Shown: positions 794 to 18,746 of the stretch, piece after piece
How positions within the stretch are numbered: the stretch's first letter is position 1
How the letters are laid out: each line of letters starts with the position of its first letter
Source: an uncultured Kiritimatiellota bacterium
Lineage (GTDB): Bacteria > Verrucomicrobiota > Kiritimatiellia > RFP12 > DVOR01
Direction: 5' to 3'
Assembly (NCBI GenBank): GCA_944389585.1
Contig: CALXMW010000007.1
Coordinates: forward strand, 11,372-75,371
Length of the DNA stretch: 64,000 nucleotides
Position numbers and translations under genes: made by a program
Notes under the pieces: model-generated
Seen by the model: only the letters and a program-made list of their open reading frames with translations
The model's database searches: none
Told to the model about the DNA's origin: nothing

Positions 794-2449
794 TCAGTCC
801 TCCACGGGTTTCATGGCGAAGGTTTGGAAGGTGTCGTCCCAGCCCCAGCGGTAGGTGACGCCGCCGGCGGTGGCCTGGACGGAGGAGAGGGGCGCGTAGA
901 GGCCCTCGATCTGGGCGAGGAGCTGGGTTTTGGCGGCGGCGACGGCGGCGGCGATGGCGGCGTCCACCTCGCTCTTGGTGTAGGTCTGGGCCTTGGGGTA
1001 GACGTCGGCGCTGTTGGCCTTTGGGGCGACGGCCTGGGCGATGGCCTGGTTGCGGGCGACGACCTCTGCGGCGATGGCCTGCGCGGTGGCGGTGGAGAGG
1101 GCGTTGTAGGCCTGCTGGACATTGGCCTGGATGGCGGCATTGGTCTGCTCGGCGGTGCTGTAGGCGCTCAGGTCGACGGTGGCGCCGAGGGCGTCCCAGG
1201 CCGAGCCCGTCCAGGCGACGTTCTGGCCGTCCTCGTCCTGGACGTTGTAGACGTCGCCGACGGCGGGGGCGGAGGGGAGGGCGGAGCGGGTGGCGACGCT
1301 GCCCTTGTAGTGGTAGACCCCCGCCACCTTGCCGTCCACCTCGGCCTTGGTGTACGTCTGCGCCTTGGGATAGACGTCGGCGCTGTTGGCCTTCTGGGCC
1401 AGGGCGGCGTCCAGCCCGGCGACCTGCGCGGTGGTGTGGGTGTGGGTCTTCTCTGCTTTCTGGTCGAGGGCGGCCTTGACGGCCTTGGAGGAGGGGACCC
1501 AGTCGATGGCGTCGGCGGAGTTTGCGTGGGCGATTGTCTCGCGGTCGATTTGGAGGGCGAGGGTGACCTTCTGGACGTAGCCGACGGACTCCGGGGTGAC
1601 GGTGACGGGCTTGGTGGCGGCGAGGTCGCCGATGCGCAGGATGGACTTCGGCTGGTTTCGGTTCTGCGGGCCGATGAGGTAGCGCTCCACCACCGTCTCA
1701 TCCGCGCCGAAGGCGGTGATGGACTCGCGCTGATACATGGTGACGAAGGCGTCGTCTTCGGGCTTTGCGCCCTGCTTGCCGGAGACGGCGAAGCCGCCCT
1801 GGGTGCCGTTTTGGGTGACGAGTGCGGTTTTGCCGTGGGTGTCGGGGTCGGCGTGTTCGCCGGGGGCGAGGAGGGGGACGCAGCGCTTGGCGTGGCCCTG
1901 CAGGGCGGTTTCGAGTGCGTTGTCGGCCTGTTGCCGGGCCTGGGTCTCGTCCTTGAGGGCGTCCTGGAGTTTGTCGAGCTGGGATTCGGGGAGGCGCTGT
2001 GCGGGGGTGAAGCCCGGGGAGGGGGCGAGGTCGAGGGCGCCGTAGGCGCGGAAGGAGGCGCCCTGGGGGGTGGTGAGGGCGAGGAAGAAGCGGACGCGGT
2101 CGTGGCCGGTGTCGCAGTCGGGGTCCCAGGTGGCGGAGAGGGTTCCGGCGGCGGGGTCGTATTCGCCGGGCTTTTCGTACCACTCGTCCTCGGCCATGCC
2201 GTCGGTCTGCCAGCGGAGTGCGACGGTGGCGCCGGAGAGGCCGGTGAGGGGCTGGGCGTATTGGGTGGGGGTGCAGGCGAGGGTGAAGGATTCGCCGTGG
2301 AAGGCCCGCGCCCGGAAGGGGCGCGGGGCGGAGACCTCGGTCTGCCAGGCGAAGCGCAGGGGCGCTTCGCTTCGTGAATCGAGAATCGCGAATGGCGAAT
2401 CGTTCGCCCCTTGCGGGGCGTCCAAGGCGGTTGCGTCCGTAGCGTCCAT
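794..2449 (-). CDS. Putative tail fibre / baseplate-associated protein
   Basis: 551 aa with RBS (AAGGAAAAG). Duplicated KANSADVYPKAQTYTK motif and a YKGSV..ALP..GDVYNV...WTGSAWDALG segment typical of fibre proteins. Lies downstream of the head genes. Confidence 0.55.
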   Translation of the reverse strand: MDATDATALDAPQGANDSPFAILDSRSEAPLRFAWQTEVSAPRPFRARAFHGESFTLACTPTQYAQPLTGLSGATVALRWQTDGMAEDEWYEKPGEYDPAAGTLSATWDPDCDTGHDRVRFFLALTTPQGASFRAYGALDLAPSPGFTPAQRLPESQLDKLQDALKDETQARQQADNALETALQGHAKRCVPLLAPGEHADPDTHGKTALVTQNGTQGGFAVSGKQGAKPEDDAFVTMYQRESITAFGADETVVERYLIGPQNRNQPKSILRIGDLAATKPVTVTPESVGYVQKVTLALQIDRETIAHANSADAIDWVPSSKAVKAALDQKAEKTHTHTTAQVAGLDAALAQKANSADVYPKAQTYTKAEVDGKVAGVYHYKGSVATRSALPSAPAVGDVYNVQDEDGQNVAWTGSAWDALGATVDLSAYSTAEQTNAAIQANVQQAYNALSTATAQAIAAEVVARNQAIAQAVAPKANSADVYPKAQTYTKSEVDAAIAAAVAAAKTQLLAQIEGLYAPLSSVQATAGGVTYRWGWDDTFQTFAMKPVED

Positions 2450-2518
2450 CGTTCTTTTCCTTCGCTTGGTTTGTCGCGCGCTTGCCGCGCGTCCGATTCA
2501 CGATTCGCGATTCACGGC

Positions 2519-2950: not shown

Positions 2951-3311
2951 GGTGTGTGTGCTCCCTTCGGTCGCACGGTGAATCGTGAATCGTGAATCGC
3001 GAATCGTTGGTGGGTGGGGCTGCGCCCCACGCCCCTTCGGACGGCCCGCGCACCATTCGCGATTCGCGATTCGCCATTCGCGGGTTGCCCCGCCAGAGGC
3101 CCGTGGAGGGCTTCGTGGGGCTTTGGGGTGAAATCCTGCGCCGAAAATCTTTGCAACGATTCTGCGGGCTTGCAGGGGCCTTTGCAACGGCATTGCGCGG
3201 CGGGGCCGCGCGGAAGCTTGGAAGTTTGGAGACTTGGAAGGTTGGTTTTGGCTTCGCCGGTCGCCCTTCGGGCGCGCCAAGCCTCCAAGCCTCCAAACTT
3301 CCCGACGGCCG

Positions 3312-4220: not shown

Positions 4221-4273
4221 GGCGATGTCCTTTCTGGAAGTTTGGAAGTTTTGAGGCTTGGTTGCCTAGGGCC

Positions 4274-5245
4274 TCAGAGGAGGCCGCGCTCGATGGCGGC
4301 GCAGCGCTCCTCGGGGGTGCGGCAGGCGGCCAGGGGGTTGGCGGGCTCGGCGGGGCGGCGGGCGGCGGCGGCGTTGCAGACGGGGCGCGCGGCGGGCTTG
4401 GGCGCGGGGGCGGGGGACTTGAGGCAGGCCAGGGTGGCCTTGACGGCGTCGCGGTTGGTCACGTAGAGGCGCTTGAAGGCCTCCTTGTTGGCGATCTTGT
4501 CCTTGTTTTCCTCGGCGGCGGCCTCGGCCTCGGCGTTGAGGGCGGCCTCCTGCGCCTCGGCGGCGGCCTGGGCGAGGCCATCGACGGCCTGGAGGATGGC
4601 GGCGTCGTCGGCGTCGGGGCCGAGGCCGAGGATCTCGAGGAGGCGCGCGCGGAGGTCGGGCGCGGCGGGGGTGGGTTCGGTGGTGTCGGGTTCCATGGTG
4701 GTTCCTTTGTTGGGGGTGAAAACGTGAATCGTGAATCGCGAATCGCGAATCGTCTCGGGGTGGGGCTTCGCCCCACGCCCCTGCGGCTTGCCTGTCGCGG
4801 CACGCGGTTCCATTCGCGTGTTCAAGACCGGGCGGACGGGCAGATTGGGCTTGTTGGTGAGGCCGACGGAGACGAGGCGGCAGGGGCGGTCGTGAGAGTC
4901 GAGCTCCCAGACGGGGGAGAGGAAGCGGAGGCGGCGGTTGGAGACGGCGTCGGCCCCCGCGTCGGTGAAGCGGAAGGTGGCCAGCAACCCCTTGGCGGGG
5001 TCGACGCGCACGCGCTGGACCCAGGCCGCCGCCTCGGTGTCGCCCCCCGTCTCGGCGTGGTGCTCGAAGTCGACGAGGACCTCGGGGCGGAAGTTGGCCA
5101 CGACGGCCTCGAAGGCGGCGCGGTCGCAGCGCTGGATCACGCGCTCATCCCCGCGCAGGCCGGGGAAGGCGCCGTAGGGGGAGAGCTGCACCTCCAGCTC
5201 GTCGCCGGGTCGGATGGTCTTGGGAAGGGTCTGCGTCGCGTTCAT
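4274..5245 (-). CDS. Mu-like prophage I protein (head protease plus C-terminal scaffold)
   Basis: LVDFEH, AAAWV, RFLSPV and SVGLTNKP motifs of the Mu gpI family. In-frame internal ATG at 4696 with AAAGGA RBS. Confidence 0.88.
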   Translation of the reverse strand: MNATQTLPKTIRPGDELEVQLSPYGAFPGLRGDERVIQRCDRAAFEAVVANFRPEVLVDFEHHAETGGDTEAAAWVQRVRVDPAKGLLATFRFTDAGADAVSNRRLRFLSPVWELDSHDRPCRLVSVGLTNKPNLPVRPVLNTRMEPRAATGKPQGRGAKPHPETIRDSRFTIHVFTPNKGTTMEPDTTEPTPAAPDLRARLLEILGLGPDADDAAILQAVDGLAQAAAEAQEAALNAEAEAAAEENKDKIANKEAFKRLYVTNRDAVKATLACLKSPAPAPKPAARPVCNAAAARRPAEPANPLAACRTPEERCAAIERGLL

Positions 5246-5260
5246 GGCCCTAGTATCGCA
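5246..5260 (-). promoter_or_regulatory. Candidate late promoter, extended -10 (TGcGATACT), leaderless
   Basis: Hexamer ends 6 nt before ATG 5245, no Shine-Dalgarno, just downstream of a terminator. Confidence 0.5.
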
Positions 5261-5311
5261 CGGGGGGCGGGGGCGCTGAAGGGCAAGTCTTGCAACTTTG
5301 CCAAATCTGGC

Positions 5312-5345
5312 AAAAAACGAGCCGCCCGAAGGCGGCCCGTTTTTT
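5312..5345. terminator. Bidirectional intrinsic terminator ending the early operon
   Basis: AAAAAACGAGCCGCC-CGAA-GGCGGCCCGTTTTTT. Confidence 0.8.
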
Positions 5346-5473
5346 GGAAGCTTGGAAGCTTGGATGTTTGGAAGTTTGGAGGAGCGGAGGAGGTTGGGGC
5401 CCGGGCTGTCGCCTGCGGCGACGATGTGGCCGAAGGGGTGTGGGGCGGAGCCCCACCGCCTAGGGCCAAGCCT

Positions 5474-5791
5474 CTAAGCCTCCAAACTTCCCGCCTTCGC
5501 CTCGCCGAGGCGGACGCGGATGCCGGAGAGCTCGGCGGAGAGGCGGTAGGCGCGGTCGGTACCTTTGGCGATGAAGGCGCGGTGGGCCTTGAGGGCGTCG
5601 AGGAGCTCGGCCTCCTTGGCGAGTTGCCTGGCGCGCCAGTCGCGGTAAGCGTCGAGGCGCTGCTCGATTTCCTTGGCGCGCGCCAGGAGGCGTTGACGCT
5701 CTGCGCTGTCGCGCGGCGAATCGTGAATGGCGAATCGTGAATCGTTCGCCCCTTGCGGGGCGTCGGAGCTGTTCTGGCCGGATACTTGCAT
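5474..5791 (-). CDS. Small coiled-coil phage protein
   Basis: MQVSGQNSS..., GAGGG RBS, last gene of the early operon. Confidence 0.55.
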   Translation of the reverse strand: MQVSGQNSSDAPQGANDSRFAIHDSPRDSAERQRLLARAKEIEQRLDAYRDWRARQLAKEAELLDALKAHRAFIAKGTDRAYRLSAELSGIRVRLGEAKAGSLEA

Positions 5792-5883
5792 GGTTTTCCC
5801 TCGGTTTGCCTGTCGCGCGCTTGTCGCGCGCACGATTCGCGATTCACGATTCACCATTCACGGCGGCGTCAGCCGCCTGCCCG

Positions 5884-6435
5884 TCAGGCCTCCTCCGTCT
5901 TGGGCTCGCAGTAGAAGCGCTCGGTCTGGGCGACGCGCAGGCCGCAGGCGGCGAGGTCCTCGGCGTCGAGCGCCTTGCCGGCGACGGCGGCCAGGAGCGC
6001 GGCCTTGTCGAGCTCCTCGGTGGTGCGGACGTATTGGGGGAGGCGCTCCTTGACCATTTGGAGGGCCTGCTCGGCCTTGACGCGGGGGCGGAGGCGGACG
6101 GCGGGGTTGCCGAGGCGCCAGCCGATGGTGCCGTGGGTGAGGACGAGGCTGCGCTTCTCGCCGAAGGCGGCCTTGTGGAGCTCGGCCCAGGAGGCAATCT
6201 CCTCGGCGAGGGCCTTTTGGGCGGCGTCGAGGGCGTCGAGGTCGGCGGCGTAGCGGTCGCGGACGGCCTTGAGCTCGGCGTCCATCTTGGCGGTGAGGGC
6301 GCGGCGGCGGGCGTCCTTGAGGGCCAGCTCGCCCATCAAACGCTCGACGTCGTCGAGCGTTTGGGGCGAATCGTGAATCGCGAATCGCGAATCGTTGCGC
6401 CCCTTCGGGGCGTCAGGTGTGGGTTTCGTTTTCAT
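5884..6435 (-). CDS. gam: Host-nuclease inhibitor Gam
   Basis: Coiled coil followed by HGTIGWR, YVRTTEELDK and FYCEP, the Mu Gam pattern. Confidence 0.88.
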   Translation of the reverse strand: MKTKPTPDAPKGRNDSRFAIHDSPQTLDDVERLMGELALKDARRRALTAKMDAELKAVRDRYAADLDALDAAQKALAEEIASWAELHKAAFGEKRSLVLTHGTIGWRLGNPAVRLRPRVKAEQALQMVKERLPQYVRTTEELDKAALLAAVAGKALDAEDLAACGLRVAQTERFYCEPKTEEA

Positions 6436-6502
6436 GGTGGGATGTCCTTTCTGGAAGTTGGGGGTGTTTGTCGCGCGGCTTGCCGCGCGGGCGATTCGCG
6501 AT

Positions 6503-7162
6503 TCACGATTCGCGATTCACGAGCCTGACGCGGAAGAGGCGGGGAAGGTCCTTGCCGGGGGCGCGCCGGGGCGTCTTGAGCAGCGCGTTCACCGTCAGCA
6601 CGTAGCGGGCGTGGAGGTCGAAGGCCAGGCGCATGGGCCCGCGGGAGCCGTCGGGGAGCTCCTCCCACTTGGCGAAGGGGACGCGGCGGAGGAGGCGGCG
6701 GCGGTGGGTGTCGAGCATCTGGAAGAGGCGGTGGAGGCGGGGGAGGTCGAGGTCGAGCCACCACTCCTCGCCCTCGGCGTGGAGGGCGTCGCGCCAGCCG
6801 GCCTGCGCGAGGACGCCGCGGAGGTAGGGGATGGCGCCGGGGGTCCATTGCTCGGCGAGGTCGGGGAGGGCTTGGGCGATCTCGAAGCACTGGCGGGCGC
6901 ATGCCTCGGCCATCCTGGCCAGGCGGCGGCCCTCGGCCGTTCCCCACCGCATGGCCTCGCCGTGGCTCTCGGCCAGGCGGCTGACGTGGGCCATCAGGCG
7001 GTCGAAGTCGGCGCCGGAGCCGACGGCCTTGAGGCTGGGGACGCCGCAGGCCTCGCGGACGATCTCGTGGCGCCAGGCCTCGCGTTCGCCGGGCGGGATG
7101 CACTGCCGGTCGCACGCCTGTTGGAAGACCTTGAAAAAGGCGACTCTCTGTTTGTCCGTCAT
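6503..7162 (-). CDS. GemA/gp16-like phage regulatory protein
   Basis: N-terminal WRHEIVREACGVPSLK..DFDRLM resembles GemA-like proteins. AAAGGAG RBS. Stop codon is supplied by a heptamer array. Confidence 0.45.
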   Translation of the reverse strand: MTDKQRVAFFKVFQQACDRQCIPPGEREAWRHEIVREACGVPSLKAVGSGADFDRLMAHVSRLAESHGEAMRWGTAEGRRLARMAEACARQCFEIAQALPDLAEQWTPGAIPYLRGVLAQAGWRDALHAEGEEWWLDLDLPRLHRLFQMLDTHRRRLLRRVPFAKWEELPDGSRGPMRLAFDLHARYVLTVNALLKTPRRAPGKDLPRLFRVRLVNRES

Positions 7163-7301
7163 GGTTCACTCCTTTCAGTCGTTCGCGCGAATCGTGAATC
7201 GTGAATCGTCTCGGGGTGGGGCTGCGCCCCACGCCCCCTCGTTGCTTCAATCCTCATTGTGGTATCCTTTTGCATGGTTTGATTCAGCATTTGGAGAAGA
7301 G

Positions 7302-7652
7302 ATGAAAACGTACCGTGACTTAGAGGCTTGGCAGGTCGGGATGGACTTGGTGGAGGCTGTCTATCACCTGGCCCGGCGACTTCCCGCCGAGGAACGTTAT
7401 GCGCTGTCGGACCAGTTGCGCCGGGCGGCGGTCTCGGTGCCGGCCAACATCGCGGAGGGCTACGCCCGGAACTCCCCGGCGGAGTTTCGCCGATTCGTGC
7501 TGATTGCGGCGGGGTCGTGCACGGAGGTGCAGACGCACCTGCTGATTTGCGAGCGCGTCGGGTTGCAAACGCGTGAGCAGACGCGCCCCGCGCTGTTGCT
7601 GACCGACCGGCTTGGCAGAATGCTCCATAAGTTGGCCTCCTCGTTGGGCTGA
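7302..7652 (+). CDS. Four-helix-bundle protein (23S rRNA IVP / TIGR02436, Avd-like fold)
   Basis: MKTYRDLEAWQ...EERYALSDQLRRAAVSVPANIAEG...FRRFVLIAAGS..EVQT signature. GGAGA RBS and TGgTATCCT -10 at 7260-7268. Confidence 0.92.
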   Translation: MKTYRDLEAWQVGMDLVEAVYHLARRLPAEERYALSDQLRRAAVSVPANIAEGYARNSPAEFRRFVLIAAGSCTEVQTHLLICERVGLQTREQTRPALLLTDRLGRMLHKLASSLG

Positions 7653-7697
7653 CGATTCGCGATTCACGATTCACGATTCACGGAGTTGGTGCGCGCG

Positions 7698-8783
7698 TTA
7701 GCGCGTCACCAACTCATACGCGCGGAGGACGTGGGGCCAGGCGAGGGGCTCGCCGCGCTTGGCGGCGAGGTTGCCGCCCAGGGCGAGGAGCTTGGTGTAG
7801 CGGTTGAGGCGCATATGGCGGAAGGTGGGGAGGGCCTCGGGCGGGGGCTCGGGCAGGCCGTAGGCCGCGGCCACCTTGAGGAGATCGCCCCACGGCAGGT
7901 CGTCGGGGAGCACCAGGCGCTTGATGCACCGCTCGCTGAACTGCTCCAGCCACCCCTTGAGGGGGCCCTGGATGAGGTCGTGGTCCAGCGCGCGGGTGCC
8001 GCAGACGACGAGCCCGCAGCCGGAGAGGTCGTGGAGCTCGCGGATATACTCCATGATCTTCATGGCGGCATGGCGGCCCGAGGAGATGGCGAGCTGGTGG
8101 AGCTCGTCGACAATGAGGAGGGACTTGGAATCGAGCGCCTGTGCGACGCGGCGGCGGAGTTGCTCGGGGGTGGCGCGGGTGGTGACGCCGCAGGCCTCGG
8201 CCAGGGCGAAGAGGGCGGTGCGGAAGCCCGGCGCCGCGGGCATCCGCACGTAGCGGACGACGTACTCCGAGCGCCGCTTGTATTCCAGCAACGCCGTGGT
8301 CTTGCCGAGCTGACTGGGGCCGACGACGATGGCGGGCATCTGGTGGATCAGCGCCAGGTCGCAGGTCTGGCGGATTTTCTCCCAGACGCTCGTCTCCACG
8401 AAGGCGGCGCTCGCCAGCTTGGCGCGCTCGGCGCGGAGGTGGCGGTATTGCCGGATCTTCTCGATGACGTTCTGCCAGGAGCCCTGATAGGCGCCGTTGA
8501 GGACGCGGCTGACGGTGGAGGCGTTGTAGCCGATGCGGCGCCCGGCCTCGGCGTAGCTGAGGCCCTCGGCGCGCATCTCGCCGATGAGCCAGAGCACCTG
8601 CGCGCGGTCGTCGCCGGTGAGGGTGCCCTCCTCCACCAGCGGCGCGAGCGCCCGGCTCACGGTGTCCGCGCTCATGAGGGCGAGGCCCGTGGGCGGCTTC
8701 GCCGCCGGTGAATCGTGAATCGCGAATCGCGAATCGTCCCGCCCCTGCGGGGCGACGGATTGCGCTGTGTGTGTCGTGTCCAT
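7698..8783 (-). CDS. MuB-like transposition AAA+ ATPase
   Basis: N-terminal HTH, Walker A GPSQLGKT, Walker B LLIVDE, directly after the transposase. Confidence 0.9.
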   Translation of the reverse strand: MDTTHTAQSVAPQGRDDSRFAIHDSPAAKPPTGLALMSADTVSRALAPLVEEGTLTGDDRAQVLWLIGEMRAEGLSYAEAGRRIGYNASTVSRVLNGAYQGSWQNVIEKIRQYRHLRAERAKLASAAFVETSVWEKIRQTCDLALIHQMPAIVVGPSQLGKTTALLEYKRRSEYVVRYVRMPAAPGFRTALFALAEACGVTTRATPEQLRRRVAQALDSKSLLIVDELHQLAISSGRHAAMKIMEYIRELHDLSGCGLVVCGTRALDHDLIQGPLKGWLEQFSERCIKRLVLPDDLPWGDLLKVAAAYGLPEPPPEALPTFRHMRLNRYTKLLALGGNLAAKRGEPLAWPHVLRAYELVTR

Positions 8784-8798
8784 TGTGTACTCCTTGGG

Positions 8799-11057
8799 TT
8801 AGATCAAATCGTCCATGGTGGCGCCGGCGAGGCCGTGGCCGGAAGCTTGGAGGCTGGCCGTGGAAGGTTTGGCGCGTTGCGCCTGCACGGGAAGGTTGGA
8901 GGCTTGGCTTTCGGGGCGGGGGTCGGCCCGTCGCCCGTCAGGGCGCATCGATTCGCGATTCACGATTCGCGATTCACCCTGCGCCTCCGCGAGGAGGTGC
9001 TTGTTCCACGCCACATCGGCCTGGTGCTCCGCGGCGCGGCGCTCGGCCCAGGGGAGGATCTCGCGGCGCTCGAGGGCCTGGATCTTGGCGCGGATCTTGA
9101 GGTTGGCCGCCACGCCCTCGGGGTCGTCCTGGTGGCTGGGGGCGAGGACGGGGGCGAGGCCGAGGTAGCGCCAGGAGCCGTCCTTGGCGGGCTCGGCGAC
9201 GTAGGCGACGAGCGGTTCGAGGGGGTTGACCCAGACCAGCGCCTCCTGGCCGCGGCGGAGGAGCCGCTCCTCGCCCTCGGGGGTCCGGACGACGCCGGCG
9301 ACCGTGGCGGCGAAGTCGATGGCGGGGTCCTTGACGCGGAGCTCCACCTTGGCGGAGACGGTGGCGCGCATGGCGAGGCCCTCGCCGAGGATGAGGGGCA
9401 TGAAGGCGCGGTCGGCGCGGATGACGTCGCCCTCCCGCCGCTCCCACGCCTCGGCGGGGGAGAGGCGGCGGGCGCGGGTGAGGGCGGGGTCGGCCTCGAG
9501 GGCGGCGCGGACGGCGGCGGCGACGGCGGGGGGCAGCCCCTCGAGGTCGGCCAGCGGCCGCCAGGGCTCGCGGGGGCCCAACCGCCAGGCGGTCTCCACG
9601 AAGCCCTGTTCCGCCCACCCCTCGAGGGCGTGGTCGGTGCGGCCGTTGAGCTCCGCCACGGCCTCGGCCACCAGCGCGGCATAGTCCTGGAAGGGGAGGT
9701 AGGGCCAGCGGAGGCGGGCGGGGAGGTCGGGGTCGCGGGCGGCGAGGGCGCGGCAGGCGCGGAGGAGGGCGGCCTCGGCCTTGTCGCGGGCGTAGAGGTC
9801 CTCGGGCGCGGCGTCGCGGTCCTTGCCGACCTGCCCGGGCACGTCGGCCAGCAAATCGTGGAGGAGGCTGTGGTTGCCTTCGAGCCGCGCCTTGAAGCGG
9901 AAGTTGCCGCGGGGGCGGCCCTCCCAGAGGCCCTGCGCGAGAGGCTTGGAGAGCTTGCCGCCGGCCAGGAAGCGGACCTTCCCGCCTGTCGCCGCTTCCA
10001 CGGCGGCGGCGAGGCGCTTGTCGGCGGCGGCGGTGCCGTGCTCGCCCATCACCGTGGCCCCGCCGGGGGCGTAGCCCTGGACGATGAGCCAATAACCGAT
10101 GAGGTAGGGCATCATGCGGGCCATGACGACCTCGCGCGTGCCGTCGTCGCGGCGCCGGATGGGCTTGAGGAGGTAGCTGCGGAAGCCGGTGGCCACGTCG
10201 AGCAGCGCGAGCTCGACGCACCGCTCGGCGGGGGCGCCGTCGGCCGCGCGGACCTTGACGTCGTGCCACATGTCGTCGATCTCGACGATCTGCCCGCGCA
10301 GGAGCCCGGCGCGCGTGCGGGGGACGGAGGGGAGGAGGGCGCTCGCCGCCAGCGTCCCCTGCCGCGCGGCGGTGAGCGCCCACTTGGAGGGGAGCAGCCG
10401 CATGAGGTTGGCCTTGCTCCACCCCGCGGGGAGCAGCACGCCCGCGCGGTAGGGGCACACGGCCGGCGCCTCGCGCCCGGGGAACTCCGCCGCGTAGAGC
10501 TGCCGCCACGTGCCCACCCCGGGGATGGCCTCGCCCGCGCGGAGGTGGGCGAGGAGCTTATCCCAGGCGCGGCTGGAGACGCGCTGATTCTGGAGGACCA
10601 GGCCGCGCCAGAACTGGACGAAGGCGGCGTTGGCGGCGACCCCCGCGGGGGCGGCGTGGGCGGCCGCGGGCACCAGCGCCTCCCACCCGCGGCCGGGACG
10701 CTCGGCCTCGCGCCGACGCCACGCCGCGGCCTTGCGGTAAAGACTCTTCAGGCTCAGGCCGCGGAGCCCCGCGTGCTCGGCGGCGAGGCGTGCGGCGACG
10801 AGCGCGCGCCCCTCGGGCGGGGCGGCGAGGAAGGCGTGCATCACCCCCACCCATTCCCGCAGCTCCCCCAGCTGACGCGCCGTCAGACGCCCCGCCAGCC
10901 GCGCCCAGTCCTCGGCGGGGATGGCGCAGGGCGGCTGCGCCGCCGCGTGAATCGTGAATCGCGAATCGTGAATCGCTTCGGGGTGGGGCTCCGCCCCACA
11001 CCCCTTCGTCCCCTCGACCCCGAGGGCGACCAAGCCGTTTGCGTTCACTGGTTCCAT
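8799..11057 (-). CDS. MuA-like transposase
   Basis: Start MEPVNA with AAGGAAAGG RBS. Integrase-core motifs EIDDMWHD, LLDVATG, EHG and KARLEG. Paired with a B-like ATPase. Confidence 0.87.
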   Translation of the reverse strand: MEPVNANGLVALGVEGTKGCGAEPHPEAIHDSRFTIHAAAQPPCAIPAEDWARLAGRLTARQLGELREWVGVMHAFLAAPPEGRALVAARLAAEHAGLRGLSLKSLYRKAAAWRRREAERPGRGWEALVPAAAHAAPAGVAANAAFVQFWRGLVLQNQRVSSRAWDKLLAHLRAGEAIPGVGTWRQLYAAEFPGREAPAVCPYRAGVLLPAGWSKANLMRLLPSKWALTAARQGTLAASALLPSVPRTRAGLLRGQIVEIDDMWHDVKVRAADGAPAERCVELALLDVATGFRSYLLKPIRRRDDGTREVVMARMMPYLIGYWLIVQGYAPGGATVMGEHGTAAADKRLAAAVEAATGGKVRFLAGGKLSKPLAQGLWEGRPRGNFRFKARLEGNHSLLHDLLADVPGQVGKDRDAAPEDLYARDKAEAALLRACRALAARDPDLPARLRWPYLPFQDYAALVAEAVAELNGRTDHALEGWAEQGFVETAWRLGPREPWRPLADLEGLPPAVAAAVRAALEADPALTRARRLSPAEAWERREGDVIRADRAFMPLILGEGLAMRATVSAKVELRVKDPAIDFAATVAGVVRTPEGEERLLRRGQEALVWVNPLEPLVAYVAEPAKDGSWRYLGLAPVLAPSHQDDPEGVAANLKIRAKIQALERREILPWAERRAAEHQADVAWNKHLLAEAQGESRIVNRESMRPDGRRADPRPESQASNLPVQAQRAKPSTASLQASGHGLAGATMDDLI

Positions 11058-11136
11058 GTTGCCTTTCCTTCGCTTGCTTTGTCGCGCGGCCCGCCGCGCG
11101 CCCGATTCACGATTCACGATTCGCGATTCACGGCGT

Positions 11137-11949
11137 TCACGCATCCGCGTGGACGACCTCATGGAGGAGGTCGATGGCGTCGCGGAGGGTGTGGAGGTCG
11201 GTGGGGGTGAGGGCGGCGTGGCGGCGCTGGCGCACGATGAGGTCGGAGAGGCGGTCGAGGGGCTCGGAGAGCTCCTTCCACGCGATCTCGGGACTCGCAT
11301 CGAGGGCGGCGGCGAAGTCCTTCGCCTTCCGCCCCGCGCCCTCGCGCTTCCCGCCCAGGCGGAGGATGGACCGCTGACTGCGGCCCGCGAGAAACTCGCG
11401 GACCTTGTCAGGGTCGGGTGAATCGTGAATCGTGAATCGCGAATCGTTGGACGCCCCCTGCGGGGCGTCGGGCAAGGCTGTGGCCGCGCCGCCCTCCGCC
11501 TCGTCGGCCAAGGCCAGCGCCGCGACCGTCTTCTCCGCCACCGCGAGAAAACGGCAAGCGGTCTTGTAGTTGATTTCAGGGCAGTGGATGGCCAACCACC
11601 CTTTCAGCCCCATCCCGCGGTTCCAGCCGTGCATGTCATCGAAGCTTTTCCCCGCAGTCTCACGTGCGAGAACGCGGGAGGAGCCCTCTATTTGCAAGGG
11701 TTCGGCGGTTTGCCCGTCGCCCGTCAGGGCGTACGATTCACGATTCGCGATTCGCGATTCACCGGCGGCCGTCTCGGCCGCCTCGGCGTCTTCGAGGCGC
11801 TCTTTCACGGCGCGGAGCATCATGCCGAATTGGTAGGCCTCGTAGAGGCCGTCGAGGGCCTTTTGGTACTGCCGGGTCAGCATCGCCACGTCCTCGGCGG
11901 TGGGCTCGAGGGATTGGGGCTGCAGGGTCATTGCAAGGGTGTTGTCCAT
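11137..11949 (-). CDS. DUF3102-like phage protein with in-frame repeat insertions
   Basis: G..LRAVKERL...LKGWL...INYKTACRFL pattern, AAAGGA RBS. Confidence 0.55.
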   Translation of the reverse strand: MDNTLAMTLQPQSLEPTAEDVAMLTRQYQKALDGLYEAYQFGMMLRAVKERLEDAEAAETAAGESRIANRESYALTGDGQTAEPLQIEGSSRVLARETAGKSFDDMHGWNRGMGLKGWLAIHCPEINYKTACRFLAVAEKTVAALALADEAEGGAATALPDAPQGASNDSRFTIHDSPDPDKVREFLAGRSQRSILRLGGKREGAGRKAKDFAAALDASPEIAWKELSEPLDRLSDLIVRQRRHAALTPTDLHTLRDAIDLLHEVVHADA

Positions 11950-12107
11950 CTTTGTGTCCTTTTGGAAGTTTGGAGGCTTGGAAGTTAGCCGTGGAAGGTT
12001 TGGCGCTTTGCGCCTGCACGGGAGGCTTGGTTTCTCCGTCGCCCCGCAGGGGCGCACGATTCACGATTCGCGATTCACGATTCACGGGGCGTCTAGGCGC
12101 CTCGCGC

Positions 12108-12374
12108 CTAGACGCCCTCCGCCATATGGCGCGCCAGGGCGACGGCCGACTCGCGGGGGATTTTCCAGAAGGTCTTTTTGCCGGTGCCGGCGTTGAGGTT
12201 CACGGCCTCGAGGCGGCCTTCCTCGATCCACTCGGTGACGGTGGTGGTGGAGGCGCAGAAGGCCAACGCCACGTCCGCCACGCTCAGGAAGTCCTGCGCC
12301 GGCAGGCGCCGGAGCACCGTCCGCAGCCAGGCGGGCGGCGGGGCGAAGAGGTCGCCTTGGATGGGGCAGGCCAT
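12108..12374 (-). CDS. Excisionase/MerR-like HTH DNA-binding protein
   Basis: LSVADVA...TVTEWIEEGRLEA...WKIPRES pattern, AAGGAG RBS. Confidence 0.75.
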   Translation of the reverse strand: MACPIQGDLFAPPPAWLRTVLRRLPAQDFLSVADVALAFCASTTTVTEWIEEGRLEAVNLNAGTGKKTFWKIPRESAVALARHMAEGV

Positions 12375-12400
12375 GGGGCGTCTCCTTTGCGGCCTGGCGC

Positions 12401-12562
12401 TCAGCGCAGGACGGCGTCGGCCTCGGCCTCGTCGCCATGGAGCCAAAACCACAGCGCGTCGGCCAGCCGCTTGCGGCGACTGCCCGCAGGCAGCCCCTTC
12501 CATGCCCACAGCAGCCGCGACAGCGGCCCCGGGCGGAACGATTCCTCGTGAAATGCTCTCAT
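12401..12562 (-). CDS. Small hypothetical phage protein
   Basis: 53 aa, strong AAAGGAGG RBS, in the early operon. Confidence 0.55.
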   Translation of the reverse strand: MRAFHEESFRPGPLSRLLWAWKGLPAGSRRKRLADALWFWLHGDEAEADAVLR

Positions 12563-12594
12563 GGTGTCCTCCTTTGGTTTGGGTTCTCTGAAAA

Positions 12595-12822
12595 TCAGCG
12601 GGCCAGGTGGCGGTCGAGCGCCGCCCGCGCCTCCTGGCTGATGGAATGGCCCTCCGCACGCGCCCGGCGGTCGAGCGCCGCGTAGGTCTCCGGCGAGACC
12701 AGCAGGTTCACCCGCACGGTCCCCTCGGGAAACTGGCACCGCCGCCCGCGGGGGCGCCCGGCCATCGGCAGGGGGGCGGGGGCGGACAACGCGCGGAAAC
12801 GCGCCAGACCCACGCGGTTCAT
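12595..12822 (-). CDS. Ribbon-helix-helix (CopG/Arc-like) protein
   Basis: VRVNLLVSPETYAALDRRARAEGHSISQEARAAL, ATGA overlap with the upstream gene. Confidence 0.7.
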   Translation of the reverse strand: MNRVGLARFRALSAPAPLPMAGRPRGRRCQFPEGTVRVNLLVSPETYAALDRRARAEGHSISQEARAALDRHLAR

Positions 12823-13025
12823 CGCGCCGCCTCCGCCGCGCGCGCCTTCGCCGCCTGGCGCCCGGGCCGCCAGCCGCGCGCCAAGGCCGCCGCCTCGATG
12901 CGCAGGCTCCGCTTCTGCCCTGTCAGCACCCGGCTCACCGTCCCGGGGTTCACCCCGAGCTCCTCCGCCAGGGCGTTCACCCCGGCCCACGTCTCGCGCC
13001 GCCGCAACCGGCTCTTTGTCTGCAT
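12819..13025 (-). CDS. Ner/Cro-like HTH regulator
   Basis: VNALAEELGVNPGTVSRVLTG, divergent from the repressor and first gene of the early operon. Confidence 0.75.
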   Translation of the reverse strand: MQTKSRLRRRETWAGVNALAEELGVNPGTVSRVLTGQKRSLRIEAAALARGWRPGRQAAKARAAEAAR

Positions 13026-13083
13026 GCCTCTGTCCCTTCTTTGGTATACTGTCCGTGTAGGAGGGCAACAGTTGCCCTAGAAC

Positions 13084-13152
13084 ATGAAAGAATGTAGCAC
13101 GAAATCTTACATCAGGCAAGGAAAATCTTTCATTATGGACGAAAATCTTTCA
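13084..13152. promoter_or_regulatory. Candidate operator array in the lysis-lysogeny switch
   Basis: GAAA(A)TCTT copies at 13101, 13121 and 13141 (20-bp period) plus an imperfect inverted copy at 13084, between divergent HTH genes. Confidence 0.6.
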
Positions 13153-13515
13153 CTCCGCGAGATTAGGGAACGTCTGGGGCTTACACAACAAGAACTAGCG
13201 GACGCGCTTGGAATGGCGCGTGCCTATATTTCAGCAGTCGAAAGAGGCGCCAGCCCATTTTCTGACAAGTTTCGAAAGAAAGTTGAAAATCTTTCATTCA
13301 ATGGTAGGGCAGTTTCATTGCGTGACAATCACGGGGCGCTGGCGGTGGGGTCTCCGGGTGCGCGTGTGCACAACACGGCGACGCCAACCCCTTCGGGAGG
13401 CGAGCCGCCGGCCTGGGCGGAGGCGCTGCGGGACGAATTGCGGGGGGAGTTGGCACGGCTGCGCGGACAGCTGGCGGACATCCAAGCGCTGTTGGTGAAG
13501 CTGGCTGGGAAGTGA
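13135..13515 (+). CDS. XRE-family prophage repressor
   Basis: LREIRERLGLTQQELADALGMARAYISAVERG HTH with C-terminal coiled coil. No obvious S24 peptidase domain. Confidence 0.85.
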   Translation: MDENLSLREIRERLGLTQQELADALGMARAYISAVERGASPFSDKFRKKVENLSFNGRAVSLRDNHGALAVGSPGARVHNTATPTPSGGEPPAWAEALRDELRGELARLRGQLADIQALLVKLAGK

Positions 13516-13527
13516 GGAGATGGCGCT

Positions 13528-14256: not shown

Positions 14257-14310
14257 CTCTGCGTATTCGCAGGTGCTGGGCGTGCTGTGGCACAAACTGT
14301 GAGGGTTGCG

Positions 14311-14742: not shown

Positions 14743-14907
14743 ATGGTGAGGGGTAAATGGTAAATGGTGAGTGGCGCGTGGTTTTTGAGAAAGGAAGAGA
14801 CGATGGGCAAATCGCATGCAGCGCCCGGGCCGAAGGGCGGGGGAGGATAACTGTTGCCCTGGCGGATGGGATGTGAGATAATGAAGTGAGTGAGAAAGGA
14901 CGTGCAT

Positions 14908-16490: not shown

Positions 16491-18746
16491 TCAGTTCTCG
16501 CCTTTCGTATGATACCTTCCGCCGACCTTCCGGCGCTCAACCTCTTTGTCGCTCAATTCCCCATAGTCCGTGATCAGCAGGCGGCCGGTGCGGTGTTTGG
16601 TGAGCACGGCGACGGAATTGCCGTGGATGAGGTAGAGCTTGGAGCGGGAGCGGTCGTGCTTGTAGGCCTCGCCTTCTTGGAGGGTGTCGACGAGGGTGTC
16701 CTTGGCCTTGGGGTGTTTGGCGAGGATGTGGGCGAGGCCATGGCCGCCGGCGAAGGCGTTGTCTTTGTTGCCGGGCTCGCCGTAGTCGATACCAATCCAG
16801 CCGGTGTCTTGGCGGTAAAGGGCTTTGGGCACGGAGCCTCCGCGCTTGGCCATGAGGTGGGTGACGACGCTGCGGGCACGCGCGGCGTTGGCCTTGGGGT
16901 CGGCGGCAAGCTTGGTCTCATCGAAGGTGCCGTGGGCGTCGCGCTTGGAGGGTGTCTCACCTTCGCGTTGGTGGGTGCCGGGGTGATTGGTCTCGGAGAA
17001 CTTGCCGTTTTCGTCGCGCTTGTATTCCCGGGGGGCGCGGTTGGAGGCGGCTGTCGCCGCCGGTGAATCGTAAATCGTGAATCGCGAATCGTCTCGGGGT
17101 GGGGCTTCGCCCCACGCCCCTTCGGTTTGCCTGTCGCGGGACGCGGCACGATTCGCGATTCGCGATTCACCATTCGCGCTTTCCGCGGCGAAGGTGTCGT
17201 CGAGGAGGGTGCGGATCTGGGCGGCGAGGGCGGGGTCTTCGGGGAGAAGCTCGGGGAGGCGCGCGGCGAGGGCGCGGGCGGCCTCGGGGGAGGGGTCGGA
17301 GAGGAGGCTTTGCAGGGCCTCGGCAAGGGGAGCGCAGTCGCTTTGCAATGCCTCTGCGAGGGCGGCGACCTGCGTCGCCGGAGAATCGTGAATCGTGAAT
17401 CGCGAATCGTCTCGGGGTGGGGCTTTGCCCCACGCCCCTTCGGTCTGACCGTCGCGGGACGCGGCACGATTCGCGATTAGCGATTCACGATTCGCGAAGG
17501 GGAGCGCGCCGAAGGCGGGCACCCCGCCCGCTCCCGCGGGCTCCAGCGCATACCCGGTGCGTTCCTGGAGCTCGGCCTGGGTGACGCGGTAGCCGGCCTG
17601 GACGGCTTTGGCGGCGAGGTCGAAGACCTCGGCGGGGCCGGGGGCGGGCTCGGTCTCGAAGTCGAAGGCGGCGAGGTGGGGGCGGCCGGGGAAGGCGCGG
17701 TCGAGGAGGGTGTCGGTGACGGTGCGGTTGAGGGCGGTGGCGACGGCGGCGGCGTCGCGGCGGACGATGGTGCGCCAGGTCTCCTCGTGGGCGTCGGTGG
17801 CGCCCTGGCCGATGCCGGTGGCGCCGGTGAGGGAGGTGAGCATGCCGCCGGTGGCCATGAGGACGATGAGGCGCTGCTGGTGATCGAGGAAGGCGGTGAA
17901 GGGGTCGGTGCCGCGGGCCTCGTGGGCGTAGGAGACGAGGGAGCCGGCGGGGAGGGCGCCGGAGCCGCCATCGGCGACCTGGGTGGCGGCGGCACAGTAG
18001 TCGGAGACGCGGGCGGGGTCCATGTCGGGCGGCATGGTGATGATGACGGGGGGGATGCCGTAGCGCTCGAGGAAGCGGCCCCAGGCCTTTTCGCCTAGTG
18101 CGTTGCGCAGGAAGATGGGCATGGCGGGATAGTCGATGTGGCGGGTGCGCAACAGGGTGACGATCTCGCCTTCGGGGACGGGGTCGAGGCTGCCGAAGTC
18201 GAGGGTCTCGTCGGCGGAGGGGTTCCAGTGCCAGAGGCCGGTGACGAGGTCGCGGCAGAGGTTCCAGGCGTTGAGGAGCTCGAAGCCGGCGAGGCCCAGG
18301 CCGTCGTCGCTCCAGAGGGGACGGACGTGGGCGTGGCCGCGGAAGAAGGCGGAGGCGAGGCGCTCGATGGCGGGGAAGAGGTTGCGCTCCTCGGCCTGGC
18401 CGTAGACCTGCTCAAGGAAGGCGGCCTGCTCGTCGGCCAAGGCTTGGTCGAAGCCTTTGGCGCGGGCGGCGGCCTTGGGGCGGATGGTCCAATCGAGGTC
18501 GACCAGCGCGGAGGCGCGGCGCTCGGCGCAGATCATGAGCGTGGGGTCGCTCTGCTCGAGGTTCTCGTAGATCCACTGGAGGCGGACGTCGTTGCCGCGG
18601 CGGGCGGCGTCGAAGATCATCTGGGCGCGGCGGATGGTGAGCCCGCGCAGGGGGTTGTAGCTCTCGAGGAAGGCGTTGGCCTCGCGGTCGTGGCGGGTAC
18701 GCACCGCGGTGGGCAGGACGACGGGTCTGGCGGGTTTGGTTTTCAT
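16491..18746 (-). CDS. Mu gp29-like portal (DUF935) with C-terminal extension and PBECR-like domain
   Basis: WGRFLERYGIP portal motif in the first ~410 aa. Tail carries RDENGKF and GGHGLAHILAKH. Follows the terminase. Confidence 0.85.
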   Translation of the reverse strand: MKTKPARPVVLPTAVRTRHDREANAFLESYNPLRGLTIRRAQMIFDAARRGNDVRLQWIYENLEQSDPTLMICAERRASALVDLDWTIRPKAAARAKGFDQALADEQAAFLEQVYGQAEERNLFPAIERLASAFFRGHAHVRPLWSDDGLGLAGFELLNAWNLCRDLVTGLWHWNPSADETLDFGSLDPVPEGEIVTLLRTRHIDYPAMPIFLRNALGEKAWGRFLERYGIPPVIITMPPDMDPARVSDYCAAATQVADGGSGALPAGSLVSYAHEARGTDPFTAFLDHQQRLIVLMATGGMLTSLTGATGIGQGATDAHEETWRTIVRRDAAAVATALNRTVTDTLLDRAFPGRPHLAAFDFETEPAPGPAEVFDLAAKAVQAGYRVTQAELQERTGYALEPAGAGGVPAFGALPFANRESLIANRAASRDGQTEGAWGKAPPRDDSRFTIHDSPATQVAALAEALQSDCAPLAEALQSLLSDPSPEAARALAARLPELLPEDPALAAQIRTLLDDTFAAESANGESRIANRAASRDRQTEGAWGEAPPRDDSRFTIYDSPAATAASNRAPREYKRDENGKFSETNHPGTHQREGETPSKRDAHGTFDETKLAADPKANAARARSVVTHLMAKRGGSVPKALYRQDTGWIGIDYGEPGNKDNAFAGGHGLAHILAKHPKAKDTLVDTLQEGEAYKHDRSRSKLYLIHGNSVAVLTKHRTGRLLITDYGELSDKEVERRKVGGRYHTKGEN

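Follow-up and report, generated by a model that had tools for sequence, protein, structure and literature searches.

The stretch of DNA analyzed here (the window, 64,000 nucleotides) carries genes of a Mu-like prophage, including those for A, B, Gam, a portal protein, a MuF-like protein and a protease/scaffold ORF. The host of this prophage is a chicken-gut bacterium. Three further ORFs are called GemA-like, DUF3102-like and fibre-like below, after the original prediction. These names did not hold as annotations: there was no match in Pfam or PHROG for the GemA-like or the DUF3102-like ORF, and the fibre label rests on a sub-threshold PTR match (23.3 bits versus a cut-off of 27).

We searched for three consecutive GATTCRC units, with at most one mismatch allowed, and used 100 dinucleotide-preserving shuffles as background. 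There were 40 matches in the window, while the shuffles gave a mean of 0 (n = 100). The 40 matches merged into 22 arrays spanning positions 2374-17495, of which 14 lay within ORFs and eight were non-coding. The original prediction had placed the repeats at 6366..11447. Arrays are indeed found there, but this is not their sole extent, as they fill the wider span given above and continue upstream past the window edge to C7:5756. Within the genome, 24 of the 28 GATTCRC arrays are concentrated in 23 kb of the Mu-like prophage.

Each array is a 28-nt arm adjoining a GC hairpin, and the arrays are halves of paired hairpin modules, not free microsatellites. This anatomy is directly visible at the individual elements. 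The arms form inverted pairs that fold into stems of approximately 28 bp; canonical pairs are 89-100% complementary over 23-31 nt, and longer spans that reach into the flanks are 77-82% complementary. Since arms can also pair out of register (23 nt at 100% in a pairing displaced by one unit), the analysis of pairwise A/G versus T/C covariation between arms was given up. Of the 25 GATTCRC arrays of this contig, 22 had four units, as did 14 of the 17 in the examined stretches of three congeneric genomes. The units are broken up by A/G variants (T/C on the other strand), and the tracts are neither long nor homogeneous.

The window contains 12 GATTCRC elements, one gene-bearing and the others gene-less. 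The gene-less elements described here lie on the minus strand; the gene-bearing one is unstranded. One of them is at the GemA-like/Gam boundary (6366..6520). Its 5' arm (6493-6520) consists of four GYGAATC units and holds the TGA of the GemA-like ORF at 6503-6505, so that this ORF ends with RVRLVNRES and takes its stop from the array, as had been predicted. The 5' arm is followed by a hairpin (6470-6491), a native spacer, an SD site, the Gam ATG (6435) with eight codons, a second hairpin, and the 3' arm (6366-6393), which is translated as APKGRNDSRFAIHDS. At the Gam/ORF 5791 boundary (5716..5861) the 5' arm (5834-5861) is non-coding and the 3' arm (5716-5743) is translated as NDSRFAIHDS.

The gene-bearing element (7187..7681) has inverted arms at 7187-7207 (three units) and 7654-7681 (four units), which are 92% complementary. 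The GGGGCGTGGGGCGCAGCCCCACCCC hairpin beside the 7187 arm is identical to that of the compact copies. Between the arms lies a plus-strand gene (7302-7652) for a PF05635 protein (23S_rRNA_IVP, a four-helix bundle; Pfam E = 1.2e-35, 122 bits versus a cut-off of 33.8). It is located between the B and GemA-like genes of the prophage and not in a 23S rRNA helix.

A further arm pair, recognized by arm pairing and translation, surrounds the tail of A and the start of B (8708..8977). The 5' arm (8950-8977) is in frame within A (GESRIVNRES), as is an octamer-repeat element at approximately 8840-8920. The A stop and an SD site (AAGGAG) follow; B then starts at its ATG (8783) and includes the 3' arm (8708-8735), translated as DDSRFAIHDS. 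The DUF3102-like/A boundary element (10947..11131; arms 93% complementary over 30 nt) has its 5' arm (11104-11131) directly past the stop at 11137-11139, then a hairpin, an SD site, the A ATG (11057), the hairpin GGGGTGTGGGGCGGAGCCCCACCCC and the 3' arm (10947-10974, EAIHDSRFTIH). Within the DUF3102-like ORF, two arms 285 nt apart (11418..11762) are both in frame and give GESRIANRES and NDSRFTIHDS, and a lone 5' arm with a GCGCCCCTGCGGGGCG hairpin is situated upstream of its start (12058..12085).

A compact element (2978..3081) occupies non-coding DNA that separates the major head gene from ORF 2519-2950. At the ORF 2519/fibre-like boundary (2374..2515) the 5' arm of three units (2495-2515) lies past a TAG and the 3' arm (2374-2401) is in the fibre-like N-terminus (NDSPFAILDS). 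The half element in the protease/scaffold ORF (4724..4826) is in frame (PHPETIRDSRFTIH) and comprises a hairpin and a 3' arm (4724-4751), its 5' part being degenerate; a contig from run X9 has 20 other letters in place of 4721-4826. Two compact elements are in frame in the portal gene: site 1 (17381..17495), after YALEPAGAG, and site 2 (17063..17177; ANGESRIANRAASRDRQTEGAWGEAPPRDDSRFTIYDS).

The earlier claim that the repeats are translated was supported, with nine 3' arms and five 5' arms of the family inside ORFs. Peptides of the DSRF(A/T)IHDS type were found in all six proteins named in the original prediction. They span aa 13-30 in Gam, B, ORF 5791 and the fibre-like protein, whereas in A they cover aa 24-41 and in the DUF3102-like ORF aa 165-182. 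They thus lie just after the start in five of these proteins, as was expected, but not in the DUF3102-like ORF. Two more are in the portal and another is in the protease/scaffold ORF. ESRI(A/V)NRES-type peptides likewise occur in several proteins, namely A (aa 690-707), the DUF3102-like ORF (aa 59-76) and the portal (twice), and the one in A is near the end, where such peptides had been placed. In total, in-frame copies were seen in the portal (two), the MuF-like protein, A, the DUF3102-like ORF and the protease ORF, in addition to six N-termini. In all six of these N-termini the arm is in frame with the upstream SD-ATG and the conserved body; translation was read from frames, and the in-frame cases were located by ORF extension, which favours such cases.

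The two strands of the repeat differ in what they encode. By translating the repeats we confirmed that (GATTCAC)n and (GATTCGC)n are free of stops in all frames, and all three frames give an identical cyclic heptapeptide, while (GTGAATC)n has a TGA in each of its three frames. The nearly identical DSRF(A/T)IHDS sequences given by nine coding 3' arms, usually N-terminal, might suggest that the shared peptide has a function as a tag or domain, for instance in targeting or in binding a partner. But the peptide arises from any repeat frame, eight arrays are non-coding, and orthologues have unrelated peptides or none at the same place. The adjoining hairpin, too, is read in two frames in different proteins: one hairpin-plus-arm DNA is translated as EGAWGEAPPRDDSRFTIHDS in the portal, and the protease ORF and A have GRGAKPHPETIRDSRFTIH or GCGAEPHPEAIHDSRFTIH from it. 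The functional-tag reading is largely refuted, and we give it almost no credence. Judged from the sequences, it is the DNA and not the peptide that appears to be shared among the copies.

Comparison with relatives was informative about the origin of these sequences. Two loci, L016 and L017, are syntenic with the prophage, with approximately 86-92% nucleotide identity over most blocks (blocks range from 72 to 97%). Their SD sites and ATGs are identical to those found here, despite other repeats or none at the junctions. At the GemA-like/Gam junction both halves of the element are absent and the ATG and MKTKPTPD are retained; the Gam sequence reads MKTKPTPD, a 15 aa insert and PQTLDDVERLM here, versus MKTKPTPDTPQTLEDVERLM in L017. 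B of L016 and L017 has the SD site and ATG unchanged and two different repeat inserts, all in frame. Seven repeat-bearing N-termini in these relatives are likewise in frame with the SD-ATG and the body, and all examined inserts, here and in the relatives, keep the frame. Portal site 2 is filled here only and is empty in the homologues L036 and L037, while site 1 has different repeat inserts in L036, L037 and a paralogue on contig C1; that paralogue has an additional half element, absent from C7. Filled and empty sites among orthologues thus include the Gam N-terminus, the GemA-like end, portal site 2 and the C1 paralogue.

Alignment of the homologues without inserts demonstrated both presence/absence polymorphism between relatives and the keeping of the frame. 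The start codons ahead of the arrays are ancestral, their SD and ATG being kept in two relatives with another insert or none. The same SD/ATG and the in-frame cases in two syntenic relatives support the proposal, made as an alternative in the original prediction, that the arrays are probably translated, tolerated insertions comparable to Rickettsia palindromic elements. These elements were reportedly first described by Ogata et al. They too are multi-copy short palindromes, which unrelated genes tolerate as in-frame inserts and which vary from one orthologue to another. The likeness is one of mode and not of family, the sequences being probably unrelated. The arms found here consist of four 7-nt units, there is a gene-bearing form as well as half-modules, and the copies are concentrated in a prophage, where they often supply or border stop and start regions.

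The leading proposal of the original prediction was that gain or loss of one unit switches the transposition and structural genes ON and OFF by frameshifting, as at contingency loci. Simple-sequence contingency loci are exemplified by the tetramer and heptamer tracts of Haemophilus or Neisseria. They share with the present arrays a unit length not divisible by three and a position inside coding DNA (here the nine coding 3' arms), where units are placed so that a one-unit change shifts the frame. Unlike them, the tracts described here are short, interrupted by A/G variants, paired as hairpin arms and of largely constant length, with four units in most arrays both here and in the stretches examined in relatives. 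We judged strain variation from contigs of four runs, which break at arrays, and only from the rows listed. Run X6 has one extra unit behind 2493, beside the non-coding array 2495-2515 (three units here). A second change is suggested by a contig from run X9, which has seven gap letters over 7152-7680, assigned by inference to the non-coding array 7187-7207. Both whole-unit changes, the placed and the inferred one, would bring three-unit arms to four, and there was no 7-nt change in a coding arm among the rows listed. Moreover, at orthologous sites in relatives the entire array is exchanged, with no unit slippage, and transposase, Gam and portal are not usually switched genes. In favour of switching, strains of Coxiella also differ in heptamer number, according to PMC4990558. 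The contingency-switch reading is not supported, and we regard it as highly improbable.

At least 10 orthologous half-sites carry a different arm in relatives versus GATTCRC here, sometimes with an identical hairpin. At the Gam/ORF 5791 junction the GACGCCCCGCAGGGGCG hairpin is shared with L016, where the arms are GTGARCA/CGCTCRC instead of GTGAATC/GATTCAC. In L017 the orthologue of the 12058..12085 module has an identical hairpin, with all four units being GTAAATG/GCGAATG, and the counterpart of 11418..11762 has 28-nt non-array arms, 96% complementary and 294 nt apart. At three junctions of L016 the two arms still match each other, which indicates that the arms are coupled and are not independent arrivals. 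At least eight heptamer kinds were seen in L016. The maintenance of the 28-nt length and of complementarity while the arm sequences change in concert points to a constraint on the stem itself.

We also considered what relation the arrays have to the PF05635 gene. The three PF05635 genes of this genome are flanked by GATTCRC, GGAAGYTT and GGAGAAC arms, which are three of its five largest non-GC array families (27, 26+7 and 23 arrays, respectively). Among 24 congeneric genomes searched, a GATTCRC array was detected in seven, and it was commonest in G025; fewer than seven have the prophage itself. G025 alone also has the closest homologue of the PF05635 gene (74% identity), flanked by GATTCAC arms; this homologue and the arrays reside in a phage-like region unrelated to the present prophage. 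The PF05635 cassette is missing at the matching junction in L016 and L017. A rule of one PF05635 gene per array family is not supported, as there are relatives with many array kinds and one or no good PF05635 gene: one was found in G001 (with octamer arms) and none in G002 (2.4 and 1.7 Mb; completeness not stated, so that a gene may have escaped assembly). No cognate transposase was found, the sole gene seen between GATTCRC arms being that for the four-helix-bundle protein, which is not a known transposase. A telomerase-like or retro-copying origin has no support either, as the genome, at 93.6% completeness, yielded no reverse transcriptase (PF00078).

The reading we prefer, with a probability of roughly 65%, is that a family of DNA repeats, whose half-modules have spread in the prophage, gives rise to the peptides as by-products, and that these are neither protein modules nor switches. 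The unit is a half-module, that is, a 28-nt arm of four GATTCRC heptamers beside a short GC hairpin, and two inverted half-modules make a stem-loop element. The full form (7187-7681) carries the PF05635 gene and is built like an ORF-bearing intervening sequence of 23S rRNA, while the gene-less copies are either compact elements of approximately 115 nt or two halves that bracket a native stop/SD/ATG junction. The family has probably spread within the Mu-like prophage, and we infer that copies survive only at harmless sites, so that selection would be the cause of their placement. With TGA in up to three of its frames, the GYGAATC side lies where a gene ends or beyond, and it is in frame only if C-variants leave that frame free of stops. 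The GATTCRC side is stop-free in any frame and is therefore tolerated just past start codons and in inter-domain linkers, where it would give one heptapeptide in whichever frame it is read.

Several observations count against this preferred reading. There was no clear target-site duplication, the Gam filled/empty pair showing at most CCCC, which is also hairpin stem; Gam is the one clean pair, the other sites being too diverged for target-site comparison. No transposase was found either. Native sequence lies between the two halves of an element, and simple insertion at one site does not explain this. The L016 arms are coupled and not independent arrivals, the different arms at so many half-sites look more like rewriting or conversion of arms than like insertion, and dependence of one array on one gene is unsupported by G001 and G002. 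Finally, translation was inferred from frames, with the bias of ORF extension noted above.

The stems themselves might be working RNA elements, in which a stem of approximately 28 bp closes a loop containing the SD site and AUG of the gene that follows. RNase III would then process the polycistronic phage RNA at the stems; alternatively, survival of the mRNA would be coupled to upstream translation, with ribosomes melting the 5' arm. The stems are predicted to be very stable (-77.4 kcal/mol, z = -9.2 for the GemA-like/Gam junction element; -66.6 kcal/mol, z = -6.3 for portal site 2), and in the predicted fold the SD/AUG is left unpaired in the loop. The complementarity kept at 28 nt at the Gam/ORF 5791 junction, the similar spacing of the non-array arms in L017 (294 versus 285 nt), the presence of an RNase III gene in the host genome and the cleavage by RNase III of the 28-bp stem of a related rRNA intervening sequence, as given in PMC4990558, all agree with such a role. 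Nevertheless, the stems are dispensable, as L016 and L017 have no arm pair at GemA/Gam and have unpaired or heterologous arrays at other junctions. For the compact copies within the portal and MuF-like ORFs there is no gene junction on which to act, and a double-strand cut in a stem would separate the start codon from its gene. In Rfam (E-value mode, window 1-20000) there were four chance-level matches, none at an array and none to rRNA, so no family corresponds to the arrays. A scan of 5600-12200 detected nothing promoter-like and, on the coding (minus) strand, nothing resembling a terminator; by that scan the GC hairpins are not intrinsic terminators. We consider a working RNA element unlikely, though still a serious candidate.

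It is also conceivable that the arrays are recognised by the PF05635 protein of their own cassette, acting by itself or together with RNase III, and that it gates about a dozen messages and drives the copying of arms. The arms would then be a structure-defined code, a 28-bp stem written in matched pairs around translation starts and linkers and rewritten in concert to the heptamer of the resident PF05635 cassette, and the protein would mark, process or gate phage messages. We find this rather improbable. If true, it would give a concrete function to the PF05635 family, which PMC4990558 describes as being of unknown function.

A quite unlikely alternative is that the modules are recombination joints, with arms and hairpins at gene boundaries letting related phages exchange gene modules. 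The promoter-stem-loop cassettes of T4-type phages are the comparison for such joints. Identity to L017 drops from 95-97% to 77.5% at 12058-12085 and returns to 91% at 10947-11131; the DUF3102-like gene thus forms a block with a divergence of its own. Similarly, ORF 5791 is 67% identical to L016 and 84.5% to L017, versus 90-93% for its neighbours. Different modules are present at identical sites in different phages, and GATTCAC arrays with a PF05635 gene are found in the unrelated phage-like region of G025. However, the diverged blocks correspond to small genes without a known function that may simply evolve faster, the arms differ between relatives and offer little homology for exchange, and the copies inside proteins are at no obvious module boundaries.

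With regard to known systems, the closest likeness is to the intervening sequences of 23S rRNA in Coxiella burnetii and Leptospira. According to PMC4990558, the Coxiella sequence contains an S23p ORF and has a 28-bp terminal stem with tandem heptamer repeats; RNase III cleaves within this stem, and the heptamer number differs between strains. The elements described here share the PF05635 four-helix-bundle gene in the loop, the arms of tandem heptamers as terminal inverted repeats forming a stem of approximately 28 bp, the occasional differences in unit number between strains and the appearance of a selfish insertion. They differ in that they are in a phage operon and not in rRNA, most copies are gene-less, many are translated in phage proteins, and arm pairs bracket native start sites; any RNase III action on them would be by analogy. 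Phage MITEs are likewise small, have terminal inverted repeats, are shared by host and phage and can multiply within a phage genome, as their survey states (bioRxiv 10.1101/2024.01.18.576219). The same source gives them as mostly intergenic, in contrast to the 14 of 22 arrays in ORFs here, and here neither a clear target-site duplication nor a cognate transposase was found, and arms are replaced in concert at fixed sites. In the literature covered, which had most subscription journals outside its scope, we found neither heptamer-armed PF05635 cassettes outside rRNA nor gene-less translated copies of such cassettes in phages.

These elements provide an example of how repeat DNA whose unit length is not divisible by three can live inside essential phage genes, one strand giving a stop-free, frame-independent reading and the other stopping all frames and marking gene ends. 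They also tie gene-less heptamer hairpins to a gene for an 'rRNA intervening-sequence protein' (one phage, one gene and approximately 24 arms). As close relatives have other arms at the same sites, the copying of arms, the 28-nt length and the action of the protein or RNase III become testable. For annotation, common N-terminal peptides of phage proteins may be translated repeats and not domains.

Tandem heptanucleotide repeats are also known from cyanobacteria (STRR), where they are abundant in intergenic DNA, have no known function and are used for fingerprinting; a likeness to them would lie in the tandem heptamers. In viral contigs, four GATTCRC units were found at 10 loci of unrelated phages (39-58% GC), which are not the same element. 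These loci were mostly single arrays or short hairpins at gene boundaries.

We observed 40 matches to three consecutive GATTCRC units (at most one mismatch) in the window (positions 11372-75371 of contig C7), while shuffled sequence gave none. After merging, these matches corresponded to 22 arrays, all located between 2374 and 17495. The original prediction of repeats within prophage reading frames is confirmed. The source genome (G000; 1.95 Mb, 69% GC, 93.6% complete), whose DNA was best represented in sequencing runs of chicken-gut metagenomes, holds 28 arrays when those with at least two exact units are counted. Twenty-four of them lie in C7:5756-28866, two in a small phage remnant on contig C1 and two in or beside a host ORF on contig C5. 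The latter two (L042, 38093-38113 and 43474-43487) are GATTCRC-type and lie inside or at the edge of an ORF of 2317 codons without a Pfam match, flanked by the IMPDH and YidC genes. The GATTCRC pattern was present in 7 of 24 congeneric genomes and absent from all 16 genomes that represent other genera within the order.

The minus-strand genes belong to a transposable (Mu-like) prophage. They encode a large terminase (18743-20491), a portal with a weak PBECR1 tail (16491-18746), transposase A (8799-11057), the AAA+ protein B (7698-8783), Gam (5884-6435), a Mu-type protease/scaffold (4274-5245) and the major head protein (3312-4220). The plus strand carries genes for an HTH repressor-like protein (13084-13515) and a ClpP-like protein (15121-16008). 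The names GemA-like and DUF3102-like, given earlier to two ORFs, found no family match here, and the name fibre is backed by one sub-threshold match. In the window (794-20491) and in L001, terminase and portal come first, followed by the HTH repressor-like and ClpP-like genes on the opposite strand, then A, B and Gam, then protease and major head protein, with the MuF-like gene far downstream. This arrangement departs from the usual one in Mu-like phages. Since the stretch 13000-5 is syntenic in the related locus L017, an assembly error does not account for it there. A plus-strand ORF at 13528-14256 is 35% identical to residues 53-220 of transposase A, which makes it a partial paralogue covering that protein's N-terminal region; it has no PHROG match.

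On the coding strand we found two kinds of array only, a 5' arm, (GYGAATC)x4, and a 3' arm, (GATTCRC)x4. Each arm is adjoined by a GC hairpin, either GCGCCCC-nnnn-GGGGCGAC or GGGGCGTGGGGC-nnn-GCCCCACCCC. On contig C7 the number of units was four in 22 of 25 arrays and three in the other 3. Canonical inverted pairs of arms were 89-100% complementary over 23-31 nt, and 77-82% over longer spans reaching into the flanks. The elements take three forms. The gene-bearing form (one element, 7187-7681) encloses, in opposite orientation, a four-helix-bundle gene of family PF05635 (E = 1.2e-35), and the compact form is about 115 nt long and has no gene. In the boundary form the 5' half is found at a gene's end or immediately past it and the 3' half a few codons into the next gene; the two enclose the native spacer together with the Shine-Dalgarno site and ATG. 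The RNA of the element between the GemA-like and Gam genes (-77.4 kcal/mol, z = -9.2) was predicted to form a stem of about 28 bp closing a loop, with the Shine-Dalgarno site and AUG unpaired; a compact copy in the portal gene gave -66.6 kcal/mol (z = -6.3). Compact elements in the portal and the MuF-like protein (L001:7467-8813) stand directly before extra C-terminal domains and thus seem to mark joints of polyvalent proteins. One of these domains, at portal residues 642-691, gave a weak PBECR1 nuclease-like match (E = 6e-4, below the cut-off).

As claimed earlier, (GATTCAC)n and (GATTCGC)n contained 0 stops in all frames. Because three units of 7 nt equal seven codons, all three frames yield one cyclic heptapeptide. 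TGA occurs in every frame of (GTGAATC)n, and (GCGAATC)n is free of stops. Within ORFs we found 9 of 11 3' arms vs 5 of 11 5' arms. Of these five, one provides the GemA-like ORF with its stop, as had been proposed, and four are read in the sole frame left open by their T/C pattern. Depending on the protein, the same hairpin-plus-arm DNA is read in one of two frames (EGAWGEAPPRDDSRF... vs GRGAKPHPETIRDSRF...), so the DNA is shared and the peptide is not.

We compared these sites with two relatives' loci, L016 and L017, which are syntenic with positions 1-13000 (about 86-92% nucleotide identity in most blocks, range 72-97%; B protein identity 96% and 94%, respectively). Between the GemA-like and Gam genes, a plain TGA in L016 is followed after 29 nt by ATG, while in L017 the spacer holds an octamer array and Gam starts with MKTKPTPDTPQTLEDVERLM. 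Here Gam begins with MKTKPTPD, continues with a 45-nt insert (APKGRNDSRFAIHDS) and resumes with PQTLDDVERLM. The C-terminus of the GemA-like protein changed from RVRFEERA or RIRLIDA before the stop in the relatives to RVRLVNRES here. AAGGAG and ATGGACA at the start of B are common to all three genomes, and three different repeat inserts follow, each in frame with the conserved KPTGLALMS. N-terminal arms were in frame in 6 of 6 cases here and likewise in seven repeat-bearing N-termini of the relatives, all located by ORF extension, which is biased toward in-frame cases. The first portal site holds a different repeat peptide in each of the three genomes; the second is filled only in this phage. 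Judging from frames and conservation, the start codons probably lie upstream of the arrays and the arrays are probably translated, and the kept Shine-Dalgarno/ATG sites and in-frame inserts in the homologues agree with this placement. The suggestion that the repeats are tolerated translated insertions is well supported. The gene-less translated copies resemble Rickettsia palindromic elements in behaviour.

The original prediction also proposed that gain or loss of one unit shifts the frame, making the arrays ON/OFF contingency loci. This is very unlikely, as the unit number is mostly four and arrays are replaced between relatives. In the examined stretches of three congeneric genomes, 14 of 17 arrays had four units, and between relatives whole arrays were swapped and units had not slipped. 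Strains were compared on contigs of four metagenome runs, which break at arrays, and the figures come from the listed indels; among these, one whole-unit change could be placed, a unit inserted behind 2493 in run X6. A contig of run X9 over 7152-7680 had 7 gap letters, probably a second whole-unit change, in the array 7187-7207. Both arrays are non-coding and have three units here; they would have four there. An 18.6-copy CTGATTC array in an Akkermansiaceae MAG with a distant B homologue (L019:5873-6002) is, by its length, far better suited to slippage than the four-unit arms here.

At no fewer than 10 orthologous half-sites the relatives have a different arm where GATTCRC stands here, and the adjoining hairpin is sometimes identical despite the change. 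Upstream of the DUF3102-like gene, L017 has four units, all GTAAATG/GCGAATG, beside the same GCGCCCCTGCGGGGCG hairpin, and between Gam and the following gene (ORF 5791) the GACGCCCCGCAGGGGCG hairpin is shared with L016, where GTGARCA and CGCTCRC arms flank it. Complementarity between the two arms of an element persists through sequence change. The pair in the DUF3102-like gene is replaced in L017 by 28-nt non-repetitive arms, 96% complementary and spaced 294 nt apart vs 285 nt here. Thus the elements conserve the length and pairing of their arms and not the sequence. L016 holds at least 8 kinds of heptamer. Independent insertions of half-modules (arm plus hairpin) fail to explain its matched arms; concerted evolution of inverted repeats, or some arm-writing process, would explain them.

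GGTAAAT/GTAAATG heptamer arrays were found at 14738-14768, L016:2593-2615 and L017:2479-2507. A second family, of GGAAGCTT-type octamers, occupies the same junctions (3212-3296, 4235-4251, 5344-5380, 8840-8920 and 11961-12030). Translated copies stand in A (C-terminal tail) and in the B protein of L017 (N-terminus), and the family's unit forms the arms of another PF05635 gene (G000:C1:120699-120902). The C1 remnant (L043, G000:C1:261650-265500), flanked by genes for a threonine-dehydratase-like protein and a secretin, contains a C-terminal portal fragment with flanking DNA about 90% identical to the C7 copy. At the same sites it has other arms (GGAGGCTT/GTCCCAG; CCATTTA) and an extra half element, and its middle segment differs in frame from the flanks, yet the long frame is open.

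G000 has three PF05635 genes, with arms of GATTCRC (this phage), GGAAGYTT octamers (C1) and GGAGAAC (C3). These arm types are 3 of the 5 largest non-GC array families in the genome (27, 26+7 and 23 arrays); the remaining two are 9-mers. The closest homologue of the prophage gene (74% identity) belongs to G025, a congeneric genome second only to G000 in array abundance, where GATTCAC arms again flank the gene and the phage-like region is a different one. This region (L070/L071, G025:C2:28000-52000) contains eight GATTCAC arrays with the homologue, a DnaB-like helicase, a collagen-like tail fibre and a weak terminase match. Strict dependence of arrays on the gene is disfavoured: G009, G018 and G011 have arrays without a close homologue, and G001 and G002 combine many kinds of array with at most one good PF05635 gene each.

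According to one report, ORF-bearing 23S-rRNA intervening sequences have a 28-bp terminal stem cut within by RNase III, an S23p ORF and tandem heptamers whose number varies between strains (PMC4990558). The gene-bearing copy matches this anatomy, but lies outside rRNA. The Avd protein of diversity-generating retroelements is described as a relative of PF05635 (PMC10053308). A reverse transcriptase was not found in G000 (93.6% complete). In the literature searched we found no description of such PF05635 cassettes outside rRNA, or of gene-less translated cassette copies in phage; MITEs are reported to multiply in phage genomes (bioRxiv 10.1101/2024.01.18.576219). Distinctive here are the confinement to phage, the bracketing of native start sites and the informative close relatives. 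On a viral contig of 39% GC (L005), direct GTGAATC and GTGAATA arrays with TAGTCAA units beside them (2994-3028 and 3441-3475) flank a small gene, HNH endonuclease-like by eye, and each stands directly before a Shine-Dalgarno site and ATG.
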